Below, in pieces: positions 14,225 through 26,475 of a stretch of DNA of 64,000 nt (the stretch's first letter is position 1; each line of letters opens with the position of its first letter). This stretch comes from a virus. A program made the position numbers and the translations under genes. The stretch lies in the IMG/VR virus record IMGVR_UViG_3300002225_000002; one strand, 5' to 3'. The notes beneath the pieces are model-generated. The model saw only the letters and a program-made list of their open reading frames with translations, was not told the origin of the DNA and made no database searches.

Positions 14225-14250
14225 TAAAGGGCAGCACTCCTGTGCCACCC
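14225..14250 (-). terminator. Rho-independent terminator after clpP
   Basis: Minus strand GGGUGGCAC-AGGA-GUGCUGCCC followed by UUUAU. Confidence 0.6.
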
Positions 14251-14262
14251 CTATGCACAGAC

Positions 14263-14907
14263 TTAGGTTAAGTCGGCACGTGATCTGATTACACGGTCAG
14301 CGAATCCGCCTTTAACAGCATCTTCTGCTGATAAGAACGTGTCGTAACGCATGGTTTCGAACAATTCTTCGTAAGTTTTACCCACAGAGTTATGCTGAAC
14401 ATACAGTTGAGTCAAACGTTCGTTCAAACGCTCACCTTCTTCAACCGAACGTTTGATATCTTCCAACTCTTCACGCATAACGTGGATAGAACCTTGTGTG
14501 TTGGCTGTACCGGCACTAACACGATGGATCATAGTACGTGATTCGCCCATTACAAAACGCTTACCGGCAGTACCTGATTGAGCTAAGAAGCTACCCATTG
14601 ATGCTGCTTGACCAGTAACGATAGTTTTCACGTCACATTCGATAAATTGAGCGGTGTTATAGATGGCTAAGCCAGCAGTAACAGAACCACCAGGAGAATT
14701 GATGTACATATTGATATCGCTTTCAGGATTTTCCGCTTCAAGGAACATCATTTGCGCAGTAACAATATCAGCCATACCGTCATGGACTTCACCACTTACG
14801 TAGATGATACGTTCTTTAAGTAAACGTGAGAAGATATCGTAAGAGCGTTCGCCGTTAGGGGTTTGTTCAACGACCATAGGTACTAAGCTAGATAATGGAG
14901 TATTCAT
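14263..14907 (-). CDS. clpP: ATP-dependent Clp protease proteolytic subunit
   Basis: [37 protein letters not shown], catalytic Ser AASMG, His MIHR, Asp YDTF. Confidence 0.95.
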
Positions 14908-14944
14908 GTTTTTTCTCTTTTGTCAGTGAAAGTATTGAGTTGTA

Positions 14945-14973
14945 ATTCTATTCGATTTTTATATTGGTGTCAA
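14945..14973 (-). promoter_or_regulatory. Sigma70-like promoter for clpP
   Basis: TTGACA-N17-TAGAAT on the minus strand. Confidence 0.7.
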
Positions 14974-14978
14974 CATAA

Positions 14979-15281
14979 TCATCTAATATTTTTTGCTACT
15001 TCTAAAAATTCAAGTTTACCGATTAACAAGTTGGCAATGCGATCATAAGACTCACATTCAAAATCATCAGGCCCATAACGTGTAACGCCTGTACCTTTAA
15101 TAACTACAACTTCGTCTGTTTTCATATCCAGACCGACACTATCTGCACCATCGAACTTTTCAGTGTCGATTACTACTAAAGCTTTAATAGTTAGGAGCAC
15201 AAATACTTCCAAAGGGTCTATAGCGATAGCGTCTGTGTTGGTTACAATGCCGTTTACGTTAATCATTGAATGGATTCTCAT
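14979..15281 (-). CDS. Hypothetical protein, 100 aa
   Basis: ORF in operon. Confidence 0.5.
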   Translation of the reverse strand: MRIHSMINVNGIVTNTDAIAIDPLEVFVLLTIKALVVIDTEKFDGADSVGLDMKTDEVVVIKGTGVTRYGPDDFECESYDRIANLLIGKLEFLEVAKNIR

Positions 15282-15465
15282 CTACGTTAACTTTTTCGAA
15301 GGTTAACTCGCCATACACATAGAACTGCTTTTGTTCTGCAACATACACGGCACTAGAGTACTGACCTTCTTTGAATTTCTTGTAATCTTCTTGCAAGAGC
15401 ATCTCAGTGAACCCATTATATCGGGTTATTTGGCTGATGTCACTGATTTTATAATCTTTCTTCAT
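15259..15465 (-). CDS. Hypothetical protein, 68 aa
   Basis: Directly downstream of a sigma70-like promoter; SD GGAG. Confidence 0.5.
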   Translation of the reverse strand: MKKDYKISDISQITRYNGFTEMLLQEDYKKFKEGQYSSAVYVAEQKQFYVYGELTFEKVNVDENPFND

Positions 15466-15488
15466 TGTGGCTCTCCTTTAATGCGTGT

Positions 15489-15517
15489 ATTATACTACAA
15501 AGACCACATAAGGTCAA
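15489..15517 (-). promoter_or_regulatory. Sigma70-like promoter
   Basis: TTGACC-N17-TATAAT. Confidence 0.7.
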
Positions 15518-15524
15518 TGTTTTT

Positions 15525-15532
15525 GATAAATA
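15525..15532 (+). promoter_or_regulatory. Late-like promoter GATAAATA
   Basis: 5 nt before ATG 15538 of a plus-strand gene. Confidence 0.55.
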
Positions 15533-15537
15533 ATAGC

Positions 15538-15882
15538 ATGAGACTTATAGAACTTTTCGAGACAAACGACAAATACTTTTCAGCCACCAATGAATTGGAT
15601 GCTGAGTTGAACCCTGAATCATCTTCTTATAAAGAAGAAGAGGAATCTAAGGCTAAAAAGAAAGCCAAAGATAATAAAGGGGGCACGCCCGTAGTCACGG
15701 ATGATGTTGATAACGAAGAAGAGGATTGGACCTCTACTCCAGTCGTAGGTGATATGCAATCTGCTGGATATCGAGGAAGAGAAGAGGCTAAAGCTAATGC
15801 TGGTATGCCACATGACAAATACCAACGATTCGACCCTGACTATTTCGTCCAAGATACCCCAGATGTTCCTACTCCGCTATAG
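15538..15882 (+). CDS. Putative head internal protein, 114 aa (start MRLIELFE)
   Basis: CTS-like N-terminus, acidic, own late-like promoter; the upstream part of the ORF-track call overlaps minus-strand genes. Confidence 0.55.
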   Translation: MRLIELFETNDKYFSATNELDAELNPESSSYKEEEESKAKKKAKDNKGGTPVVTDDVDNEEEDWTSTPVVGDMQSAGYRGREEAKANAGMPHDKYQRFDPDYFVQDTPDVPTPL

Positions 15883-16623
15883 AATCTTATCTAAAGCGGC
15901 AGCCACAGAGGCAGCTAAGTCAGAATCGTACTTATCGCCATCTTCCTGCAATGAATCCATGTTGCTTAAGGCCCACGTCCAGTAAGTAATAGGTATTTCT
16001 ACCATAGGCTTACCGACATGTTTACCAAACGTCATATTTTCATATATAATAGGCGCTTCTAACCACTCATAGATCTCTTCAAGATTATATTCATGAATCT
16101 GCCCTAAAGCCTTCATCATTTCTACTTGCTTCTCGAACACTTTACCTATGATGGCGTTATGCATAGCAGTGTCGGTTTCATAATCATTTCTTTTTATGTT
16201 CGCCCCGAAGAAATGATTCAAGTATGGCAATTTATAATTAGTCATGCCCAAACCTAACGCATCAAGCTTCTTACTTATTCTACTAACGCATATCAATTTT
16301 TTACCGGATAACATTTTACTGCCATTACCGTTAATCATGCCTGCATGAAAAGTTGAATTACACATTACAACGTATTCATTCACGTCAGGTATAACGCCAT
16401 CTAACTCATGAAGTCTCTTATCGCCTAACATACTTTCAGTAATGTCATGTAGGTATGAAATTTCTGGCGTAATAGGAACATCAGCTTTACAATAAGATGT
16501 CATATTATCCCACTTACCAGTGGATGACTTATATCCTACGCATAATGCTATGACTTGGTCTTGTTTGAAGTCAAGTCCAGTTGTTTCGGTATTAACTATT
16601 GTTACATTATCAAAGTTTATCAT
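15877..16623 (-). CDS. Exodeoxyribonuclease X-like DEDDh protein with degenerate active site
   Basis: IVNTETTGL, PITPEISYLHDITESMLGDK, VMCNSTFH, and C-terminal TFGKHVGK...YWTWAL align with ExoX-type proteins. Confidence 0.7.
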   Translation of the reverse strand: MINFDNVTIVNTETTGLDFKQDQVIALCVGYKSSTGKWDNMTSYCKADVPITPEISYLHDITESMLGDKRLHELDGVIPDVNEYVVMCNSTFHAGMINGNGSKMLSGKKLICVSRISKKLDALGLGMTNYKLPYLNHFFGANIKRNDYETDTAMHNAIIGKVFEKQVEMMKALGQIHEYNLEEIYEWLEAPIIYENMTFGKHVGKPMVEIPITYWTWALSNMDSLQEDGDKYDSDLAASVAAALDKIL

Positions 16624-16774
16624 TTTTTAGTCTTTCAATTAAGTTTTCTGTGCTCTCAGTAAGCTCTTCGCACTGAGTAGCTATACCGAAGTATCCTTCG
16701 GCAGATAATATTTCATACATTCCAGCTATGAACTTTTTATGTCGTTCTAACTCTGCAATAACGTCTTCTTCCAT
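16610..16774 (-). CDS. Small hypothetical protein, 54 aa (not in ORF track)
   Basis: MEEDVIAELERHKKFIAGMYEIL...; stop overlaps the start of the next gene; weak RBS. Confidence 0.3.
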   Translation of the reverse strand: MEEDVIAELERHKKFIAGMYEILSAEGYFGIATQCEELTESTENLIERLKNDKL

Positions 16775-16840
16775 AATAAATAAGCTCTAGGTATGTTTTA
16801 TGGTGCGTATTTTACCACACCACGACTTTTTTGTAAAGAC

Positions 16841-17335
16841 TTATCCAAATATAAAGGATTTAAGCTTGCACCACCAACAAGGAACATAACTTTTAGATGT
16901 CTGGTGAATACGTTCCGGTTTTTTGGTTATAGTTTCATTGGTTTCTATTTCAACCCAGCATCCGCTATCGTATTCCTCATTTATTAACCAATACGACGTC
17001 TGATTTTCAGCATCTCTATCGTCTTTGGCATACACTTCCTTACAAATGAAATCTTCTTTCTCATATGACCTGAATGAATGCAAGACCATGGCGTATTTTT
17101 TCAGGCCTCGTAATGTATTCTCGAAGTCGTCTATGTTCTCACCATCTACCTCTTCGATATTTCTCACCTTCAGTACGAAAGTTTTCCCATGTCTCATTTT
17201 TCCATCATTTTCAACATCAATCTGTAATCCTGCGGCTACGTAATCCGCATCAATACCAACCATATCTACCGATTTACATTTCATTTCTATTTTTTTACCG
17301 CCCCACCATGTGGACAGTACGATTATAGATCTCAT
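16841..17335 (-). CDS. Hypothetical protein, 164 aa
   Basis: SD GGAG; long ORF. Confidence 0.55.
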   Translation of the reverse strand: MRSIIVLSTWWGGKKIEMKCKSVDMVGIDADYVAAGLQIDVENDGKMRHGKTFVLKVRNIEEVDGENIDDFENTLRGLKKYAMVLHSFRSYEKEDFICKEVYAKDDRDAENQTSYWLINEEYDSGCWVEIETNETITKKPERIHQTSKSYVPCWWCKLKSFIFG

Positions 17336-17351
17336 TCTTTGTTCTCCACGT

Positions 17352-17375
17352 AAAAAACCGCACTAGGCGGTTTTT
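17352..17375 (-). terminator. Rho-independent terminator (bidirectional shape)
   Basis: AAAAACCGC-ACTAG-GCGGTTTTT. Confidence 0.7.
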
Positions 17376-17391
17376 GTTCATAAAGTAAGTG

Positions 17392-17970
17392 CTATAGGTT
17401 CTTAAGATCTAAACCTTTGTCAATCTTCGTCTCGAAAGCTTCACGAGCATGAGATGAACTTACAATTTCACAGTACGTTGCCAAGTCAATTTCGGGGAAC
17501 TTAGCCAGTGATAAGAAGAAACCACTAACTGTCTGTCTTAATGTCGTCTTATACGCTCGACACATGTCAATTCTGTTATTCTGCATCTGCTCGAAGTTAG
17601 TACGTCCGCCTTTAATGGCACGCATTACTTCTTTCTTCAGAGAAGGATCAATAGTCTGCGTAGATTCATTCGACCATAACATCTTAGCCGTTGCTCCGTC
17701 ATCACCATACTTACCTTTCATAGCTGCGGAAATTAACTTCACCATATCATCGGTATGTGAGTTAGCTACCTGCATCATTTCCACTACTTTCAATGACATC
17801 TGGGCCAATGTGTTCTCGTCCGCCTTGTATTGACCTACAATACCTTCTTCAGTTGCCACTGCAGTATCTTTATGCCCGATATACGCTACGCCAAATGCAA
17901 TGATAGGACCTAATACTAAGACCAATACTGTTACTACGATAGCTAGCGTTGTTTTTGTTGATTGCTTCAT
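17392..17970 (-). CDS. Membrane-anchored helical protein, LemA-like
   Basis: N-terminal TM anchor followed by a long amphipathic helical domain; size typical of LemA. Confidence 0.45.
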   Translation of the reverse strand: MKQSTKTTLAIVVTVLVLVLGPIIAFGVAYIGHKDTAVATEEGIVGQYKADENTLAQMSLKVVEMMQVANSHTDDMVKLISAAMKGKYGDDGATAKMLWSNESTQTIDPSLKKEVMRAIKGGRTNFEQMQNNRIDMCRAYKTTLRQTVSGFFLSLAKFPEIDLATYCEIVSSSHAREAFETKIDKGLDLKNL

Positions 17971-18005
17971 GTGTTTCTCCGTTGGGATATGTATTTGATG
18001 AGTTC

Positions 18006-18034
18006 ACTATATAATCTTTTACACTTACCGTCAA
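18006..18034 (-). promoter_or_regulatory. Sigma70-like promoter
   Basis: TTGACG-N17-TATAGT. Confidence 0.6.
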
Positions 18035-18062
18035 CACTTTTATCTAAAAGCCCATCTTTTCT

Positions 18063-18455
18063 TTACTTTGGAAATAATGATGCACTCTTCGAATGTTTGA
18101 TTTCTTTAGAAGTAATGGTGTACTCTTCAATGTTTGATTTCTTTATGCATCGATACGTCCAACACGTATCGTCTCTATATTTAAAAGTGTATACCTCAGA
18201 TGACTCTCTACAGTGATACCATTTGATGAAATCCAACCATGCCTCTCTAACACCAAACTTACCATCAGGTTTCGCAACTTTTAACTCCAAGTTTAGAGTT
18301 CTATTATTCTTCAGTTGTATATGTATAGCTGAATAATACTCCGGTTCCTGCACCGGCTCCGGCTTCTCTTCACCTTTCGCATACTTTGCAGGTGTAGTTT
18401 CGGTTTTATTCTTACGGCCTTTAATCCATTCACTTAGTCTTAATATTTTTGACAT
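18063..18455 (-). CDS. Hypothetical protein, 130 aa
   Basis: ORF in operon. Confidence 0.5.
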   Translation of the reverse strand: MSKILRLSEWIKGRKNKTETTPAKYAKGEEKPEPVQEPEYYSAIHIQLKNNRTLNLELKVAKPDGKFGVREAWLDFIKWYHCRESSEVYTFKYRDDTCWTYRCIKKSNIEEYTITSKEIKHSKSASLFPK

Positions 18456-18456
18456 C

Positions 18457-18624
18457 CTATTTTCCTTCTATTTTGCATTTTGCAGAAAGTACGAAGTTAT
18501 CTTTGCGTAATCGCTCCACTAACTCTTCCTTGTGACTCTCACACTCGGCGAGACTAGACATATCATACTCAATAGTTTTTGAGAATGCTCCGTTTAATAC
18601 GATTATCGCTAAAATAATTTCCAT
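18457..18624 (-). CDS. Small hypothetical protein, 55 aa (not in ORF track)
   Basis: SD GGAGAAGGG; MEIILAIIVLNGAFSKTIEY...C...C hydrophobic N-terminus. Confidence 0.45.
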   Translation of the reverse strand: MEIILAIIVLNGAFSKTIEYDMSSLAECESHKEELVERLRKDNFVLSAKCKIEGK

Positions 18625-18637
18625 TTCCCTTCTCCGT

Positions 18638-19873
18638 TTATCTTCTAAATCTTCTACGTCTATTAAATTTCCACTTAATGTGTCTGTATGAGTTGCCTAT
18701 CGGATCAAAGTCGTACTTATTGAATGCCCATAACAACCCTACGCAAATAAGAATGTCTAATATGAATGCAAATATAAGCGCTCCGGTAGAAGGTTGTATA
18801 TGCTTCACTAAATAAAAGTATTCTTTCATTGCAGGTCGATCATAATGCTTGGCAGTTAAGTTCTCTATAGTGCCTACCAGCTCACCTTGATTATCTTTAG
18901 TAATATTTTCCATATCACTGATTGCGCCAGTTAAATTAGCAGTATATATACCATTAAACTTATTTTTTCCGAATGTCATTAGGTCTGTCCACAATATATC
19001 ACCGTTAGTGTCTAAACTAATGAAGATAATAGCGTCGTTTTTCTTACCACCAAGCCATTTGTTCTCTACGGCATGTCGGAATGACATATCACCTATACTA
19101 GTTAGGATAACGATGACATTTACCTGTTTTGCAGGGTTTAATCGCCCTAATGCCTTACCAAGCTCATAATTTAGCTTATTTTTGTCGATATTACCTTTAT
19201 ATCCCACCGATAGTACACGATTCACTTTATATCTGCCGTGAACTGTTGGGTATGCCGGAACACTAGCGCTATGTGCGTTCTTTACTTCCTTATTATTGAA
19301 TAAGCTCTCTGGTACGGCTCTGACGTAGTTGTCATATGGCCTAGTGACACTCACAGGGTCGTTAATCTTGACAATAGTCCAGCTCTTAGGCTCTTTTAGA
19401 CCTTGCTTATAACGTCCGCCTACGCGTGGTTCTTCCCAGCTAACCAGATTGGAGTTTACATACCAACGCTGTTCGTATCTAAAGTAATAACGGTAGTACG
19501 TTTCATAGATTGGCTCTTCATGTGAGCTTGTGCAGCTGCCGCTATCATTATAAGAGTCACATACTGTCTCATACCCAACAATACGCTCTTCATCATCATG
19601 GGCACTACAGAAGGATGAGTACTCATCTGTCCAGCCATCGTAGTCTGGTACGGGACAATTGCGTTTCTCTGGTTGTTTGGAGGTAACTTTGCCGTTCCAG
19701 ATCTCTCTGTCAGCCATTTTGCCATTTTTAGATACTTCAAGAACGGCTATCGCAGAAGCAGCACATATGATGATACCGATCACGACCTCTTGGAAGTTAA
19801 ATTTGTGGTTAAAACATAATTTCGCAATCAAGAATGCTGCGAATGGGATAAGTATTAATAAAAAAGCTAACAT
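18638..19873 (-). CDS. Membrane protein with Cys-rich insert and TPM-like alpha/beta domain, 411 aa
   Basis: Two N-terminal TMs, VNVIVIL...WLGGKKNDAIIFI domain, C-terminal TM and Arg-rich tail. Confidence 0.5.
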   Translation of the reverse strand: MLAFLLILIPFAAFLIAKLCFNHKFNFQEVVIGIIICAASAIAVLEVSKNGKMADREIWNGKVTSKQPEKRNCPVPDYDGWTDEYSSFCSAHDDEERIVGYETVCDSYNDSGSCTSSHEEPIYETYYRYYFRYEQRWYVNSNLVSWEEPRVGGRYKQGLKEPKSWTIVKINDPVSVTRPYDNYVRAVPESLFNNKEVKNAHSASVPAYPTVHGRYKVNRVLSVGYKGNIDKNKLNYELGKALGRLNPAKQVNVIVILTSIGDMSFRHAVENKWLGGKKNDAIIFISLDTNGDILWTDLMTFGKNKFNGIYTANLTGAISDMENITKDNQGELVGTIENLTAKHYDRPAMKEYFYLVKHIQPSTGALIFAFILDILICVGLLWAFNKYDFDPIGNSYRHIKWKFNRRRRFRR

Positions 19874-19896
19874 AGTATTCTCCGTTAAGAAGCATA

Positions 19897-19925
19897 ATAC
19901 TATTCTATTTTAAAGTTGTTGTCAA
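19897..19925 (-). promoter_or_regulatory. Sigma70-like promoter
   Basis: TTGACA-N17-TAGTAT. Confidence 0.6.
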
Positions 19926-19928
19926 ATA

Positions 19929-20273
19929 TTATTGTGTGTATATCACAGTGACATGAAGCCCAAGACGTTCTGCTATGTTTATCATGTTAGCCGTGCCGGT
20001 GCTTACTCCGTCCCACAACGCGATGAGAGCTTCTGCTTCTAACGCCATCTCTTCATTACGAATAGATCCAGCTTTCTTTCCGTGTAGATCCCAGTCCGCA
20101 GGCATTTCTAAGCATGGTATGCCTTCTAGGTCGGCCCATGCCTTACCTATTGTGTCTGCACCTCTGGCGCATCCGCATATCACTTGAGTAATTTCATAAT
20201 CTATTATGTCAAATGCCTCAAATAAATGTTCTGGTCCTACGTTGTCTCTACTACCGGCTATTATTGTCTTCAT
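19929..20273 (-). CDS. SLOG-superfamily (YspA/DUF2493-like) protein
   Basis: KTIIAGSR, VICGCARGAD, PADWDLHGKKAGSIRNEEM, ALWDGVSTGT; start moved to MKTIIAG. Confidence 0.8.
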   Translation of the reverse strand: MKTIIAGSRDNVGPEHLFEAFDIIDYEITQVICGCARGADTIGKAWADLEGIPCLEMPADWDLHGKKAGSIRNEEMALEAEALIALWDGVSTGTANMINIAERLGLHVTVIYTQ

Positions 20274-20281
20274 ATGTCCAT

Positions 20282-20303
20282 AAAAAAGGGCACCGTAGTG
20301 CCC
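20282..20303 (-). terminator. Rho-independent terminator
   Basis: Minus strand GGGCAC-UACG-GUGCCC-UUUUUU. Confidence 0.7.
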
Positions 20304-20399
20304 AAAAAGGTATTTTATTATCAGTCTAATGTGGTGTTGATTAACTGGCTCACCAATTGCCTTATCATGTGTGTATTTTACCATCATTCATGAGTCAAG

Positions 20400-21224
20400 T
20401 CAAGATAAAAAATCCTTCAGATCAATTATCTGAAAATTATTATCTATCTGCCCATATACCCACGTGTCTATATAGTGAATATTACCTATAGTAAACGGCG
20501 CAGTATCTGTATACTCAATGATGGGTGTGTGTCCGCAGAACACAGCGTCTATATTAAGCATAGTTTCACAAGAGTGATCCTTACCATACATAACTGAGGT
20601 TCCACATCTCTCTATGCGTGATCTGCTCCAAGCAGCGTCTCGCATGAGTCTACTAGCATCAGTACATTCGACTTCTAAACCATTCGACACCGACACTACG
20701 TCGTTCCAGTCATAGGTATCGTTGATTTCAGCATGTACCATTGCAACTTTCTTCATAGTGCCATCGACTTGTACCGGAATTTCCATGAAATACGGTAATG
20801 CGTCTAATGCGACCATGTATTCTTTAAGCTCTTTAACTCCAAGGTCTTCACCGTGCACGGTTTTTAAGTCTTCGAACCATCTTCCGCCGTTACCCATCCA
20901 TGTATTATATGATATGATACCAGTCATATCATCAGCAGGGCAGCCGCGTAACATAAAGTCTACTCCTCTAACTAGAAACTCTTCATGGTTTCCTTTTATG
21001 GAATAGAACCAGTCTTTTTTAAGATAATCTAAGCACTCATGAGAGTACGGACCTCTATCGATCAAGTCACCCACTACGAATAGCCTATCTTGTTCGAAAT
21101 TAAAACCTATTTCTTCCAACTTATTATCAAGTTTTCTGAAATGACCATGGATGTCCCCAACAACGAAGTCTTTCCCTTCTACATTAGGCTCCATGATCTG
21201 TAAAAAGTGTATATTATCGCTCAT
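20400..21224 (-). CDS. Calcineurin-like Ser/Thr protein phosphatase (NinI/PrpA-like)
   Basis: GDIHG, GDLIDRGP, GNHE, CGHTP motifs; start moved to MSDNIHF. Confidence 0.88.
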   Translation of the reverse strand: MSDNIHFLQIMEPNVEGKDFVVGDIHGHFRKLDNKLEEIGFNFEQDRLFVVGDLIDRGPYSHECLDYLKKDWFYSIKGNHEEFLVRGVDFMLRGCPADDMTGIISYNTWMGNGGRWFEDLKTVHGEDLGVKELKEYMVALDALPYFMEIPVQVDGTMKKVAMVHAEINDTYDWNDVVSVSNGLEVECTDASRLMRDAAWSRSRIERCGTSVMYGKDHSCETMLNIDAVFCGHTPIIEYTDTAPFTIGNIHYIDTWVYGQIDNNFQIIDLKDFLS

Positions 21225-21486
21225 CTTCCTTGGTGTACTCCATTTGCTCAAACTCGGCGTAAGGGCCAAAGCCAACTTTACATCCGATACCTTCCTTGTG
21301 CGCTTCCACGCATAGTTCTCTAACCTCAGAGTATTCCTTATTGCCATATCCCATATCATCTAACATATAGCGCTGATACCCACATACTGCGAGCAATAAA
21401 ATAAGTAATACGCCCATGTAGTATATACCTAGTGTGCTGTTTGCTGTATCTTTTTTGTCTTCATCGTTAATGTACATTATGTCCAT
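21214..21486 (-). CDS. Small membrane protein, 90 aa
   Basis: Single TM segment. Confidence 0.5.
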   Translation of the reverse strand: MDIMYINDEDKKDTANSTLGIYYMGVLLILLLAVCGYQRYMLDDMGYGNKEYSEVRELCVEAHKEGIGCKVGFGPYAEFEQMEYTKEDER

Positions 21487-22133
21487 AACCTCAAGTAATA
21501 TTTGGAGAATAAATCAAGACCTTCTTGGACTACCCTTTCAATATTGTTCGGGTCCACTTCCATGAACTCATAGTAGTCTTCCATCTTAATCTTGCCGTGT
21601 GTTTCTTCAAGAGACTTTAATGTGTCCATCTCTTCATGAATCAACTCAGTGTGTATCTTAAGAACATCAGGTATTCTAATGTCTCCTAGACCTTCCTCGC
21701 AGGATGTTACGGCTAACTCATTAGACACGTACTTGAATGATATAATCATCCTAGTCATGACATATTCCCACTTAAAGCTACGAGACACGTCTATACCATG
21801 GAACTTAACGCCTATATCCATAATAGCATCCGGTACGTCCATGTCATCAACTGGAGGCACACCTTGCTTCTCAACATTTAACCTTTCCAATAATGGCACT
21901 ATAATTTTAGCCATTGTTATATCGGCATTCTTCACGTCGTTTGACTCTATGACTATTTTATCACTAAACTTAAATTTATGCAAGCAATATCTAATGAAAT
22001 GACTAATGGCAATAGGGACAGTTAACATAAAAGCCAGCGCCCTTATATTAGTGTCGTCCAAGTAACCATAGTAACGTCTTTTTATACTTTGGAGATCATC
22101 AAACTTTGAACTTTCCTTCAATCTCACCTTCAT
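21477..22133 (-). CDS. Hypothetical protein, 218 aa
   Basis: Long ORF; ends GLDLFSKYYLRLWT. Confidence 0.6.
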   Translation of the reverse strand: MKVRLKESSKFDDLQSIKRRYYGYLDDTNIRALAFMLTVPIAISHFIRYCLHKFKFSDKIVIESNDVKNADITMAKIIVPLLERLNVEKQGVPPVDDMDVPDAIMDIGVKFHGIDVSRSFKWEYVMTRMIISFKYVSNELAVTSCEEGLGDIRIPDVLKIHTELIHEEMDTLKSLEETHGKIKMEDYYEFMEVDPNNIERVVQEGLDLFSKYYLRLWT

Positions 22134-22365
22134 TACGCGTTGACTCCTTTAGTTCCAACTCAGCATTCTTTCTTTCGCTAACCCACACTAACAACTCCAA
22201 TATATTCGGACTAGCTAGGTTATTTGACGATTTTTTTAGAGAGCTAGATGCAAATGTATGCATGCCTGCGCAATCTTCATGTACAGTTACTGTACATGTA
22301 GGCTTACCAACGATGTTATATATGTGAGTGTAAGTATTCATTGTTAAGTTCTCGGTGTTCTCCAT
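22099..22365 (-). CDS. Hypothetical protein, <=88 aa
   Basis: Fills the gap between neighbours. Confidence 0.4.
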   Translation of the reverse strand: MENTENLTMNTYTHIYNIVGKPTCTVTVHEDCAGMHTFASSSLKKSSNNLASPNILELLVWVSERKNAELELKESTRNEGEIEGKFKV

Positions 22366-22850
22366 TTTCTAATAACGCAAGTGTCATGGGAACGGAGTAC
22401 ACCTTGCAAAAAGAATGACTCCGATAACGATGGCAAGAACGTATCTATTTCCATATCTTTATATACGCACGAATCTTTGATCGTAGTTATATATGCCTTA
22501 CTGATGTGTTTCATAAAAGCAGCGTATGTTTTTTCTCCACCTATCACGATAAATTCTTTATCGCTGTGGAGTTTAACTAATTCAAGGATGCTATCAAAGT
22601 TCATAAACCTCAAACTACCATGCGTGCTATTAGCATGACGTGTGACAACATAGTTGTCTCTGTTAGGTAGCGCTCTGCTACCAATGGACTCAAACGTGTT
22701 ATGTCCCATAATAACTGATTTACCAGTGGTGAATTCTTTAAAGAATTTCATGTCTTCTGGACATTTCCATGGTAATCTATTTTCTGACCCTATACCGCCA
22801 TCTTGCGTAGTCGCCGCGATAAGGGATAAATTCTCAAGTATCTGTGTCAT
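22344..22850 (-). CDS. folA: Dihydrofolate reductase
   Basis: GIGSENRLPWKCPEDMKFFK, VIMGHNTFESIGSRALPNR, VIGG. Confidence 0.93.
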   Translation of the reverse strand: MTQILENLSLIAATTQDGGIGSENRLPWKCPEDMKFFKEFTTGKSVIMGHNTFESIGSRALPNRDNYVVTRHANSTHGSLRFMNFDSILELVKLHSDKEFIVIGGEKTYAAFMKHISKAYITTIKDSCVYKDMEIDTFLPSLSESFFLQGVLRSHDTCVIRKWRTPRT

Positions 22851-23124
22851 TTTTATCTGCCTTGTTAAATGCTCTAACCATTATAGGATGCAATTTCATA
22901 GATGCCCCAATAGCTATACCACCGGCAATTATAAAAGCAAACCATGTAGGTGAGTATGCCTCTGTCTGTGATATGGCGTTGACGTTATAAAAGCTACACA
23001 CACTGATGAGCAGTGATGTCGTCATTGCCATATAAATATGGTTGTGAACCACATTTAATTGATTGAGGCCCACTAATAAAATCATAAAAAACTGTGATAT
23101 AAATACGTAGGCCACATCAATCAT
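22834..23124 (-). CDS. Small multi-pass membrane protein, 96 aa
   Basis: About three hydrophobic segments. Confidence 0.55.
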   Translation of the reverse strand: MIDVAYVFISQFFMILLVGLNQLNVVHNHIYMAMTTSLLISVCSFYNVNAISQTEAYSPTWFAFIIAGGIAIGASMKLHPIMVRAFNKADKNDTDT

Positions 23125-23402
23125 TTGCTATACACCAAAACCTTATCGTCAATACTATCTGCTCCACTATCATCAATCTCTTGAAGTCGCACAGATAGTT
23201 CCATGCGCCGTAGACCAGGATTTATATTGGCGTTCTTACCAAATAGTTCCACCGAATACACTTTTTTTGTGTCCTTTGATACCAAACGATCTAATACTTC
23301 ACTAATAAACCACTTCTCGTTTGGATCTGTAAACAATGAAACGCCATCATCGGAGAAAAATAACGTCGGCTCCGACACCAACCCAGTTACATGATACGTC
23401 AT
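23121..23402 (-). CDS. Hypothetical protein, 93 aa
   Basis: Operon context. Confidence 0.5.
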   Translation of the reverse strand: MTYHVTGLVSEPTLFFSDDGVSLFTDPNEKWFISEVLDRLVSKDTKKVYSVELFGKNANINPGLRRMELSVRLQEIDDSGADSIDDKVLVYSK

Positions 23403-23636
23403 CTATTCTCTCAGTGGATCGATCTCAACAGTGTTTGTGTCAACTTCTGCTAAGTCGATATCATCTTGGTTAGATGGAGAGTAATAGGCTTCTGAATGGT
23501 GTTCAGCGCAGTAACTTGATCCAGATTTAATTTGCTTGCTATGGCAGAAAACTATGCCACGCTCGTCTATCGACACCGGCCACTCACATTCTGTGGCTGG
23601 TGGGATAGGACCTGTGTTATGTTGGGGAGTCGTCAT
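23403..23636 (-). CDS. Stand-alone GcrA C-terminal-like Cys3His zinc domain protein
   Basis: CEWP...FC...YCAEHHSEAY matches the GcrA C.WP...FC...YC..H...AY signature. Confidence 0.6.
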   Translation of the reverse strand: MTTPQHNTGPIPPATECEWPVSIDERGIVFCHSKQIKSGSSYCAEHHSEAYYSPSNQDDIDLAEVDTNTVEIDPLRE

Positions 23637-23667
23637 ATATACCTCTGTTAATGGATAATCTGAATCA

Positions 23668-23691
23668 ATTATAACATGTTTTCAACATGTT
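23668..23691 (-). promoter_or_regulatory. Extended -10 promoter TGTTATAAT with tandem AACATGTT palindromes
   Basis: TATAAT at 23668-23673; AACATGTT at 23673-23680 and 23684-23691. Confidence 0.5.
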
Positions 23692-23694
23692 TTC

Positions 23695-24000
23695 TCAATC
23701 TATATCTGTGTATTCTATGACTATGGTATGGTTGCCTGTAGTTATTGCCTCCTTTACGGCATCAACTAGGTTACTTTCGTAGCTTGGCACTGAATACCAC
23801 GTAATATCATACGGGCTATCTACGAATCCCTTCACTGCATCGTACACGTTCTTTCGGTAATCATCAAGATCGTATACGTTACAATCGTTCAAACCTACCA
23901 TCTCAATTAAACTGTCGTAATAAATGATCTGGAAGGTTATTTTCTTTCCTTTCTTATCTGTGGCGACGTATTTAACGCCGACCTCTTTTAAATCAATCAT
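23695..24000 (-). CDS. Hypothetical protein, 101 aa
   Basis: Operon context. Confidence 0.55.
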   Translation of the reverse strand: MIDLKEVGVKYVATDKKGKKITFQIIYYDSLIEMVGLNDCNVYDLDDYRKNVYDAVKGFVDSPYDITWYSVPSYESNLVDAVKEAITTGNHTIVIEYTDID

Positions 24001-24301
24001 AAAATATTAGCATGGAACCTTCATACACATCACAAAACTCGAAGGGCAAATCACAGAAATCAGTCCAACCAATGGGACCTTCATTCCACGTTATGAATGC
24101 ACCAACGCGTCCGATGTTACGCCTCATAGCTTCTTCTTTACTATGGACCTTAACTCCTCTAGGATCATATCCTGAGTTTTTAGCAATGTCTTTTAACTCT
24201 AGAACTACTGTCTGGGCCATAATATACGGCTCATCACTTAAGCATTCTTTCCAATGTTCTCTGGTTCTCATGGTACACTCCTTGTACATAATTACCACCA
24301 T
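23993..24301 (-). CDS. Hypothetical protein, ~100 aa
   Basis: Operon context. Confidence 0.5.
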   Translation of the reverse strand: MVVIMYKECTMRTREHWKECLSDEPYIMAQTVVLELKDIAKNSGYDPRGVKVHSKEEAMRRNIGRVGAFITWNEGPIGWTDFCDLPFEFCDVYEGSMLIFYD

Positions 24302-24337
24302 CGTACGTCACGTATAATGACGGTATATTTTACGGTA

Positions 24338-24610
24338 CTATTCGTCTATCAAAGAAATTTCCGTACCGTCTCTGCATATTACAGTGACTGTTCCGAAATC
24401 ACCCGTAAGTGTATTGACGTCAAAATTGAATTCATTAACGTATTGGCTTCCGCCACATGCATAATGCATCTTCACTATTGTCAGTTTAGAAACACTTACC
24501 ACAGCATCAGCATCTATTCGTGATTCTTTATGGCCTATTTCCCTACCCATAAGTAAGGAGGCCAATCCAAAACACAAACATAATGTTGAAATCATGAAAA
24601 AGTTATTCAT
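24338..24610 (-). CDS. Small secreted/membrane protein, 90 aa
   Basis: Hydrophobic N-terminus; start overlaps the clpS stop. Confidence 0.5.
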   Translation of the reverse strand: MNNFFMISTLCLCFGLASLLMGREIGHKESRIDADAVVSVSKLTIVKMHYACGGSQYVNEFNFDVNTLTGDFGTVTVICRDGTEISLIDE

Positions 24611-24915
24611 TACACTTCCTCAACCACAACTTGAAGAGGGAATCCATTGGCGCGAGCCAATTTCGTAGTCTCTTCTTGCTTAGTCTCGGCAATTTCCTCA
24701 CTGTATACACCGGCAATGCCACGCCCAGTATGATGAATCTGTAAGGTAACCATTTCCGCATCCACTAATGTTTTGTGAAATACTGAAGCTAATACATCCA
24801 CCACAAATTCAATGTGGGTTTTATCGTCGTTCAAGAAAACTACTTGATACGTGGAAGGTTCCTTAATCTGAACTTCTTCCAAAACCATAGTGTCTTCGCA
24901 TGTTTGTGTGCTCAT
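24610..24915 (-). CDS. clpS: ATP-dependent Clp protease adaptor
   Basis: YQVVFLNDDKTHIEFVVDVL, QIHHTGRGIAGVY, EIAETK, ARANGFPL. Confidence 0.9.
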   Translation of the reverse strand: MSTQTCEDTMVLEEVQIKEPSTYQVVFLNDDKTHIEFVVDVLASVFHKTLVDAEMVTLQIHHTGRGIAGVYSEEIAETKQEETTKLARANGFPLQVVVEEV

Positions 24916-25024
24916 TGTCGGTATCTCCTACCATCAGTATATTAATTTTGCGCTATTGTAACAAACTTTCCCCGTTAAGGGAAGCTTTATTTACAAATAA
25001 GATCAAAAAAACAACTGATAATAG

Positions 25025-25032
25025 TATTTATC
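25025..25032 (-). promoter_or_regulatory. Late-like promoter GATAAATA(CTATT) overlapping the rpsU stop, pointing at clpS
   Basis: Followed by CTATT, as in the extended T4 late consensus TATAAATACTATT. Confidence 0.45.
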
Positions 25033-25264
25033 TTTTTCTGTGTTGTGCTTCAGGGCTATTATCTCTGACGCGCTTTTGCTCTCTACGACTTGCAGCTGCC
25101 TTATCTTTCTTTCGCTTAGACGTCTTCTTCTCGTAGTGCTCTCTTTCTCTCAACTCACGAATGAGTCCTGAGCTTTGTACTTTTTTACTGAACATCCTTA
25201 ATGCGCGTTCGAAGTTACCTTTAACTTCTACCGCAAGACCTTCTATCCTTACTGGACCTTTCAT
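25028..25264 (-). CDS. rpsU: 30S ribosomal protein bS21
   Basis: NFERALRMFSKKVQSSGLIRELREREHYEK..SKRK. Confidence 0.9.
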   Translation of the reverse strand: MKGPVRIEGLAVEVKGNFERALRMFSKKVQSSGLIRELREREHYEKKTSKRKKDKAAASRREQKRVRDNSPEAQHRKR

Positions 25265-26475
25265 GTATCTTCCTTTTCTAATGTAATGATACCTTTGTCT
25301 CCAACGACTACACGTATGACATTATCATTTTTATGTTTTTTAAGATCGAACTGTACGCCACTAAGATCTTCTTCAAGACTTCTTCTAAGGCCTCTGGCCC
25401 CAGTCTTGTGCTCTATGGCTTTTGAAGCCAAGTACTCTAGGTATTCTTCTGTGAATACCAATTCTATTTCTTCAACCGCAAACAAGTCTTTAAATTGAGA
25501 GAATATGCTATTCTTAGGTTCCACGATAATTCTTTTCAGCATATCCACGCTTAGTGGTTGCAGAGTTACCATGATAGGGAATCTACCAATGAATTCCCGT
25601 ATAAGACCATACTTACTCAAATCTTCAGATGATATCTTAGGCACTGTGGCCTCATCACTATTAGTAAGAGTTGCAGATAGACCCATGGTCGTGCCAGCAT
25701 CTCTTTTCTTAGCTATATCATCCAACCCAACGAATGCACCACCAGCTATGAACAAAATGTCCTTAGTGTTGAATGGAACCAACGTTAATGGTTGCTTATT
25801 CTTCGGATTAGGGTTGATCATAAGCTCTGTGCCCTCAACTAGCTTCAATAAAGCTTGCTGTACGCCTTCGCCTGAGATATCCCTACCACTACCGCCTGTT
25901 TTTGCCTTAGCTTTCTTATCAATCTCATCTAAGAACACAATACCTTGCTGTGCCTTATCTATATCGCCGTCAGCGGCCATAAGAAGGTCCTCAAAGATAC
26001 TTTCTACGTCTTGCCCTACATAACCTGCCTCAGTGAGAGAGGTGCTGTTAGCGACAATGCACGGAACGTCAGCAATCTTAGTAATAGTCTTCAATAATAA
26101 CGTCTTACCACTACCTGATGGTCCTACCATTAGAATATTTGACTTTTCCACTGTGTCCTCACCACGATTAACCATGGCAATTCTTTTCTTATGATTGAAT
26201 ATCGCCACTGATAACTTTTCTTTAGCGCTATTTTGACCAACCACGTACTCATCTAATTGATTCTTAATATCATTAGGATACAAAATGGACTTGGTACACT
26301 CAACTTTATCAAGTGCAGCCTCATCCGCTTTCATTTCTAATACGAACTCTTCAGCGACACCAGTACATTCACTACAAATGTAGGCTGATGGTACACCTTC
26401 AGAGTCTAACGGTCCTGATATAAGTAAATCAACCTCGCCTTTTCCTTTACCACAAAAAGTACATAATTCACTCAT
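25261..26475 (-). CDS. clpX: ATP-dependent Clp protease ATP-binding subunit
   Basis: N-terminal Zn domain CTFC...ICSEC, KSNILMVGPSGSGKT, GYVG, DEIDK, RDISGEGVQQALLK, TGARGL. Confidence 0.95.
   Translation of the reverse strand: MSELCTFCGKGKGEVDLLISGPLDSEGVPSAYICSECTGVAEEFVLEMKADEAALDKVECTKSILYPNDIKNQLDEYVVGQNSAKEKLSVAIFNHKKRIAMVNRGEDTVEKSNILMVGPSGSGKTLLLKTITKIADVPCIVANSTSLTEAGYVGQDVESIFEDLLMAADGDIDKAQQGIVFLDEIDKKAKAKTGGSGRDISGEGVQQALLKLVEGTELMINPNPKNKQPLTLVPFNTKDILFIAGGAFVGLDDIAKKRDAGTTMGLSATLTNSDEATVPKISSEDLSKYGLIREFIGRFPIMVTLQPLSVDMLKRIIVEPKNSIFSQFKDLFAVEEIELVFTEEYLEYLASKAIEHKTGARGLRRSLEEDLSGVQFDLKKHKNDNVIRVVVGDKGIITLEKEDT

Follow-up and report, generated by a model that had tools for sequence, protein, structure and literature searches.

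A PA5oct-type Clp module with its own ClpA and an unusual ClpX in an uncultured jumbo phage

The stretch of DNA analyzed here (64,000 nucleotides; "the window") belongs to IMG/VR virus record IMGVR_UViG_3300002225_000002 (G000; 347,232 bp; GC, 0.40; CheckV completeness estimate, 94%), which derives from an uncultured jumbo phage, and corresponds to the reverse strand of G000:C1:254499-318498. Its minus strand carries genes for the unfoldase ClpX, ribosomal protein bS21, the N-degron adaptor ClpS, and the peptidase ClpP, and the same record encodes a ClpA unfoldase outside the window. We consider it probable that the phage has a self-contained Clp system, in which ClpAP and a ClpS with an altered pocket would handle N-degrons and ClpXP would act on substrates independently of RKH/T199 recognition, alongside bS21, DnaJ, a tmRNA, and 37 tRNAs. 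The set is a new example of the known PA5oct-type Clp module of jumbo phages, since its gene order and Clp complement match those of cultured PA5oct and Clp sets are already in the literature for jumbo phages.

In the mechanism that we propose, the phage would supply the ClpP peptidase itself, along with both unfoldases and the N-degron adaptor. ClpS would dock on the N-domain of the phage ClpA and hand N-degron substrates to phage ClpAP, and ClpX would dock on the phage ClpP via its MGL loops and select substrates without the RKH and Thr199 contacts. Expressed together with bS21, DnaJ, the permuted tmRNA, and the tRNAs, the Clp genes would form a kit for the takeover of proteostasis and translation, so that quality control and targeted degradation during infection would depend little on the Clp components of the host. 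These pairings and substrates, like the suggested role in infection, are predictions from sequence comparison.

Clp genes of the phage

A preliminary description of the window, made from its letters, had named ClpX, ClpP, and ClpS, and Pfam and NCBIfam matches support these identities, at the coordinates stated and on the minus strand. The components are as follows, in window positions unless a prefix is given.

25261-26475, minus strand: clpX, 404 amino acids (NF003745, 429.2 bits, cutoff 359; TIGR00382, 392.8 bits, cutoff 370.75)
25028-25264, minus strand: bS21 gene, 78 amino acids (PF01165, E = 1e-15); its start overlaps the clpX stop by 4 nt
24610-24915, minus strand: clpS, 101 amino acids (PF02617, 95.7 bits, cutoff 23; E = 1.4e-27)
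14263-14907, minus strand: clpP, 214 amino acids (Pfam CLP_protease PF00574, 194.9 bits; E = 1.5e-57)
G000:C1:337398-339620: clpA, 740 amino acids
L002:6584-7372 (G000:336583-337371), plus strand: DnaJ homologue (J domain and C-terminal domain), directly upstream of clpA, likewise in PA5oct and Atu_ph07

The preliminary description had reported that the window contains no clpA and proposed a search of the remaining genome. The report is literally true but misleading. A Clp_N search of the whole record gave one match, in the 740-residue open reading frame (ORF) listed above, 19 kb past the low-coordinate end of the window. This full-length ClpA has a Clp_N domain (48.3 bits), two AAA+ modules, and a D2-small domain, with no ClpB middle domain. 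It aligns with E. coli ClpA (1ksf) over residues 4 to 726 (E = 1.5e-192) and reads SIGFG where E. coli has SIGL, i.e., it has an IGF docking loop.

ClpX scores above both curated NCBIfam equivalog cutoffs, with coverage of residues 3 to 394, and contains the Pfam domains AAA_2 and zf-C4_ClpX. Its N-terminal C4 zinc domain (PF06689, 32.2 bits versus 27) has CxxC motifs at residues 5 to 8 and 34 to 37, with a 7-residue insert between them. Residue alignment to E. coli ClpX (PDB 8e91; E = 1.1e-94) shows an intact single AAA+ module, with Walker A (GPSGSGKT), Walker B (FLDEID), the arginine finger (EFIGRFP), sensor 2 (GARGLR), and pore-1 (AGYVG). It also agrees with the earlier reading of this protein, namely, that the Zn domain and GYVG are kept, pore-2 is altered, the RKH loop is replaced, and MGL stands for IGF. 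Alignment of ClpP to E. coli ClpP (3mt6 and 1tyf) supports the intact Ser-His-Asp triad previously described; the N-terminal axial loop and the equivalents of E51 and R192 are kept too, and a 10-residue insert follows the handle helix, as in PA5oct ClpP. ClpP and ClpS are present in one copy each, as the whole-record search found no second ClpP or ClpS.

The domain architectures of all four Clp proteins match those of E. coli ClpXP and ClpAPS. Catalytic and ATPase motifs, GYVG, R192 and E51 of ClpP, and the amino-group binders and ClpA-binding surface of ClpS are common to both systems. The phage differs from E. coli in that its ClpX is devoid of T199, R228, and H230, the gatekeeper M40 of ClpS is Ile, and clpS is linked to clpX and the bS21 gene rather than to clpA. 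Also unlike E. coli, its whole genome yielded no SmpB, SspB, or Leu/Phe-tRNA-protein transferase (Aat). Thus, the phage encodes no known type of ClpX adaptor or of enzyme that generates N-degrons.

Comparison with PA5oct and other large phages

The top cultured-phage matches of ClpA and ClpP fall in the Pseudomonas PA5oct group. Pseudomonas jumbo phage vB_PaeM_PA5oct (MK797984; Arenbergviridae) shows the order found here, i.e., thyA, clpX, an overlapping bS21 gene, clpS, an epsilon-like exonuclease gene, clpP, and mazG, with dnaJ-clpA at a distance. Its proteins are 50.7% (ClpA), 57% (ClpP), 42% (ClpX), 41% (ClpS), and 53% (bS21) identical to those of the phage, and the clpX-S21 junction is the same. 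PA5oct ClpX is also RKH-less, with the tripeptide MGF where our phage has MGL, and the ClpS motif has K at the equivalent position in both phages (NDNK in PA5oct and NDDK here). The phage departs from PA5oct in three extra changes in the ClpP pocket, in having no small heat shock protein or FtsH between the Clp genes, in a genome 60 kb larger and from an uncultured source, and in a permuted tmRNA, which PA5oct does not have. The two also have no similarity at the DNA level; in a DNA-level search, the whole region had zero matches among 50,697 phage records.

Clp sets of this kind are known from other jumbo phages. Atu_ph07 encodes ClpX, ClpP, ClpA, ClpB, ClpS, and DnaJ (PMC6102473), and Sinorhizobium phage AP-J-162 has six Clp ORFs and a tmRNA (PMC11242549). 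These two phages and Phosso share ClpX, ClpP, ClpA, ClpS, and DnaJ with the phage studied here, at 43 to 44% identity. The clpX, clpS, and clpA matches in Atu_ph07 lie at least 4 kb apart, in different parts of a 490-kb genome, and its ClpX (L026) has a near-RKH loop, GGRKNP, and the tripeptide FGF.

A scan of IMG/VR provided 80 loci with a relative of the phage ClpX (37 to 48% identity). ClpS lies downstream of ClpX on the same strand in 66 of them (median gap, 1.5 kb), with S21 between the two in 19, and ClpP is found on the same strand about 3 kb upstream of ClpX in 38. Most of the related contigs among the scan matches listed are marine. The linkage of ClpX, bS21, and ClpS is conserved in PA5oct and in many large phages that are uncultured and mostly marine; one combined literature search on this linkage found only an unrelated paper. 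The recurrence of the S21 gene after clpX suggests conserved coexpression of a ribosomal protein with Clp genes. PA5oct has a tractable host and is a possible experimental model.

Substrate recognition by ClpX

Six residues of E. coli ClpX, i.e., Y153, V154, T199, V202, R228, and H230, are critical for ssrA-tag binding; the replacements T199A, T199V, V202A, and H230A raise the Michaelis constant (KM) strongly, R228A shifts specificity, and ssrA substrates are not degraded by human ClpX, in which residues 199 and 230 are Leu (Fei et al., PMC7652416). The phage ClpX has Y, V, G, I, N, and Q at these positions, with three of the six replaced (T199G, R228N, and H230Q) and Ile at V202. Its pore-2 loop reads KKAK-AKTGGSGRD, compared with KISRKSDNPSITRD in E. 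coli; taken one residue further (KKAK-AKTGGSGRDI versus KISRKSDNPSITRDV), the alignment places T199G and V202I. The RKH loop is MINPNPKNKQPL instead of AVPPQGGRKHPQ, where R228N and H230Q flank a kept K229 to read NKQ. The protein is a homologous member of the ClpX family without the RKH/Thr199 signature of ssrA recognition.

Substrate recognition by the phage ClpX is probably noncanonical, and canonical recognition of Ala-Ala-COO- tags is probably missing. As ssrA tags are bound in E. coli ClpX through RKH and Thr199 contacts that are absent here, the substrate set of the phage ClpX probably differs from that of the host ClpX. The orthogonal protease with new substrates envisaged in the preliminary description is retained to this extent, together with an MGL tripeptide that could mark a fit to the phage ClpP.

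Among the 80 viral ClpX relatives, 54 have no RKH motif (57 if three with RKN are counted), and 45 of these 54 have GYAG as pore-1. DEIDKKAK occurs in all 80, a figure that reflects search bias in part, as the motif was among the scan patterns. A protein search provided a closer clade of ten metagenomic homologues (P0004-P0013; 53 to 72% identity), which shares with the phage an NP[DN]PxN[KR]xP loop and the pore-2 sequence with Gly-199, and in which the docking tripeptide is IGF, MGF, IGV, VGV, or VGF. The loops are therefore a conserved clade character, a selected state rather than decay. This clade is not among the metagenome-scan matches listed, mostly marine ClpX of the DEIDKKAK type at no more than 48% identity, and a degenerate DNA pattern for MINP[DN]PxNKQP had zero matches in IMG/VR. 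The uniqueness that the preliminary description implied for the loop variants was overstated. Phage homologues, those of PA5oct among them, commonly show the loss of RKH, a K in the ClpS motif, and Met as the first residue of the IGF tripeptide. The only features unique to this phage are the complete MGL tripeptide and three changes in the ClpP pocket.

In a large group of viral ClpX proteins (L028-L085), pore-1 reads GYAG instead of GYVG, a short VPNK-PQH loop replaces RKH, and Ser occupies position T199. ClpS is always present in these loci, and so is ClpP wherever the flank is long enough.

Proposed docking of ClpX on ClpP

In the predicted ClpP-docking loop of ClpX, MGLSATL replaces IGFGATV. 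The tripeptide keeps a hydrophobic-Gly-hydrophobic pattern, and the loop has normal length. I268L, F270L, and V274A cause severe ClpP-binding defects in E. coli ClpX, and R192 of ClpP is essential (Fei et al., PMC7112951). The phage ClpX has M, L, and L at positions 268, 270, and 274, and its ClpP keeps R192. We set aside the view of MGL as a trivially conservative change, given the severity of the I268L and F270L defects, which imply instead that MGL could mark a partner-specific fit to the phage ClpP.

A stronger version of this idea is that MGL and a unique ClpP pocket have coevolved, so that ClpX would work only with the phage ClpP and be insulated from host ClpP; this version is compatible, as an added feature, with the self-contained system proposed above. 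Besides the E. coli mutants, it draws on L48M, M92T, and L114M, found only in this phage among 39 viral ClpP proteins compared, and on MGL, found only here among about 200 ClpX proteins. This coincidence hints at coadaptation, but it is a single one, from one genome, and the pocket positions are presumed ones rather than the product of a contact calculation. Y60N is general, with Asn at E. coli Tyr60 in 36 of the 39 viral ClpP proteins and near-universally in the ClpP of the GYAG-ClpX group. In addition, the canonical IGF of the phage ClpA must fit the same pocket. The docking tripeptides are swapped between unfoldases, with MGL in ClpX and IGF in ClpA of the phage and IGF and IGL, respectively, in E. 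coli, whose ClpP accepts both. MGF, VGF, and LGF are also frequent among ClpX homologues that have RKH, and long bacterial contigs encode some of these homologues. Exclusive docking is thus conceivable but doubtful.

The partner of ClpS

ClpS was aligned to Caulobacter and E. coli structures (3dnj, 3o2b, and 1mbu). It has an N-terminal extension of about 17 residues and keeps the equivalents of D36 and of N34, D35, T38, and H66, the binders of the N-degron amino group. Also kept are E79, E82, and K84, which in E. coli ClpS form the surface for binding the ClpA N-domain. Relative to E. coli, the protein carries Y37K (NDDK for NDDY, in agreement with the preliminary description), P39H, M40I, and M62T. 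The gatekeeper Met40 excludes beta-branched N-terminal residues (bioRxiv 10.1101/2024.06.12.598358). This gatekeeper signature is missing in the phage protein (M40 to I and M62 to T), and M, Q, F, I, or V occupies the position in viral ClpS. The altered pocket may shift the residue preference of ClpS.

NDDK as a meaningful change of specificity was rejected. Viral ClpS proteins are hypervariable in the residue after NDD, which is S, T, K, V, A, G, Q, or F in those of the IMG/VR loci, and K recurs in six other loci as NDDK and in PA5oct; this variability makes the variant ordinary for a phage ClpS.

Co-occurrence of ClpS and ClpA was assessed by searching the whole records of relatives, with the following results for the four genomes at least 90% complete.

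G000 (94% complete): ClpS, ClpA, and ClpX present
G001 (100% complete): ClpS, ClpA, and ClpX present
G002 (100% complete): ClpS, ClpA (46% identity; missed by the Clp_N model), and ClpX present
G003 (100% complete): ClpX present; ClpS and ClpA absent

Both proteins are also present in PA5oct, Atu_ph07, and Phosso. The fragmentary records (40 to 60% complete) are mixed, as expected. Given the phage's own full-length ClpA, the kept ClpA-binding residues, and this co-occurrence, ClpS most likely serves the ClpA of the phage.

The preliminary description had ClpS jamming or redirecting host ClpAP or working with ClpX. The premise of these ideas is removed by the phage ClpA, the co-occurrence of ClpS and ClpA in relatives, and the conserved ClpA-binding residues. 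A comparative review does propose that phage ClpS proteins bring targets to host ClpAP (Iyer et al. 2021, PMC7824862), and action on host ClpAP, whether redirecting it to new N-degron substrates or blocking its normal ones, would suit a pocket unlike that of E. coli and a clpS that is not next to the phage clpA. The phage nevertheless encodes its own ClpA, the two proteins co-occur in the complete relatives tested and in cultured jumbo phages, and the sequence bears no sign of selectivity for a host ClpA. We therefore regard action on host ClpAP as unlikely. Since the partner here lay outside the window, proposals that an orphan phage ClpS acts on host ClpAP call for a check of the whole genome.

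Several observations weigh against a self-contained system with ClpS serving the phage ClpA. ClpA matches TIGR02639 over positions 3 to 733 of 734 with 824.7 bits, under the equivalog cutoff of 993; ClpS is below its NCBIfam equivalog cutoff, and ClpP is under two (213.9 versus 308.6 bits and 231.6 versus 249 bits). The clpS gene adjoins clpX, far from clpA; clpS-clpA is the usual operon in cells. Among five relatives with ClpS, all 40 to 52% complete, three have no detected ClpA, two of which were rechecked with the ClpA protein. The evidence for the pairing is motif conservation plus co-occurrence in four complete genomes and a few cultured phages, and the literature searched held no biochemical study of phage-encoded Clp components. 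Finally, the N-terminal half of ClpP is about 60% identical to that of E. coli ClpP, which makes mixed assemblies with host partners possible.

A possible role of ClpX as a remodeling chaperone

Host ClpX remodels Mu transposase and lambda O complexes. The phage ClpX could likewise be mainly a ClpP-independent remodeling chaperone on replication or assembly complexes, leaving ClpP for virion maturation. In keeping with such a division, the docking tripeptide is noncanonical, clpX and clpP are 10 kb apart, and clpP is flanked by promoter- and terminator-like sites of its own, listed here.

14973..14945, minus strand: sigma-70-like promoter match, TTGACA-17-TAGAAT, 38 nt upstream of the clpP ATG
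14252..14227, minus strand: terminator-like hairpin with a T-rich tail, just past the clpP stop (11-pair stem, 6 GC)

Both sites are consensus matches only; the sigma70 promoter ascribed to clpP in the preliminary description stands as such a match (11 of 12 positions). Replication or assembly roles have also been suggested for jumbo-phage Clp proteins (PMC6102473, PMC7824862), and some PA5oct-group records name ClpP "head maturation protease". However, the phage ClpP keeps the axial loop and R192, both needed for unfoldase coupling, the ClpX loop is of normal length and pattern, and nearly half of the viral loci scanned have a linked ClpP on the strand of ClpX, as noted above. ClpP also scores 232 bits on the ATP-dependent model versus 88 bits on the ClpP-related head-maturation model, which, along with its conserved axial loop, led us to reject a prohead protease. 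A mainly ClpP-independent ClpX is accordingly improbable.

The tmRNA and its tag

The record contains the following tmRNA outside the window.

G000:C1:229770-230138 (L005:3761-4139), plus strand: permuted (two-piece type) tmRNA (RF04321, 81.6 bits, cutoff 47; RF01850, 85.5 bits, cutoff 84)

In its tag, ANEELYAQAA, Gln takes the position of the Leu, Met, or Ile found in host-type tags. Tags and ClpX loops compare as follows in the phage and three relatives with a permuted tmRNA.

G000: tag ANEELYAQAA, ending QAA; ClpX RKH-less
G001: tag ANDNYQPEMAMAA, ending MAA; ClpX with RKH
G002: tag ANDNSVASQPVALAA, ending LAA; ClpX with RKH
G005: tag AEDNFAIAA, ending IAA; ClpX RKH-less

Four genomes are too few to claim covariation of tag and loop, and neither PA5oct nor G003 has a tmRNA. 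A private tagging circuit can be imagined, in which the phage tmRNA would add its noncanonical tag, a phage unfoldase would handle this tag differently from host ClpX, and the rescue products of ribosomes programmed by the phage would be routed to, or spared from, a specific protease, with the phage protease insulated from host partners by MGL and the ClpP pocket changes. Candidate unfoldases may be the RKH-less T199G ClpX or the phage ClpA modulated by ClpS. We give this circuit little credence. Still, the loss of ssrA-recognition residues in many phage ClpX proteins, often along with a permuted tmRNA of the phage's own, poses a testable question about tag and protease specificity in infection.

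Neighboring genes and host

Upstream of clpX lies thymidylate synthase (thyA), and downstream of clpP lies MazG. Between clpS and clpP are genes for a GcrA-like 77-residue protein, dihydrofolate reductase (DHFR), a metallophosphoesterase, a SLOG-domain protein, a virion structural protein, a degenerate RNase T-like exonuclease, and several small ORFs, to which PHROGs and Pfam searches assign no proteostasis function. Two of these genes have weak matches.

23403-23636, minus strand: GcrA-like 77-residue protein, covering the C-terminal part of the GcrA cell cycle regulator only (E = 1.1e-05, just under the Pfam cutoff)
15877-16623, minus strand: weak RNase T/DEDD exonuclease homologue (23.8 bits, at the Pfam threshold)

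The latter occupies the position of the epsilon-like gene annotated "DNA polymerase III" upstream of clpP in PA5oct. The GcrA-like protein may hint at an alphaproteobacterial host. Taken with the permuted tmRNA, the ANxx-type tag, and similarity to Atu_ph07 and Phosso proteins, it points weakly to a proteobacterial host, possibly an alphaproteobacterium.

A 411-residue window protein to which no function was assigned has its top matches in the jumbo phages Atu_ph07, Sinorhizobium AP-J-162, and Phosso. ARAGORN places the 37 tRNA genes at G000:C1:100979-211544, with all but two within 193278-211544. An M14 zinc carboxypeptidase domain and Kelch beta-propeller repeats are joined in one 1,045-residue protein (L002:2724-5861, plus strand) 1.5 kb upstream of the clpA start.

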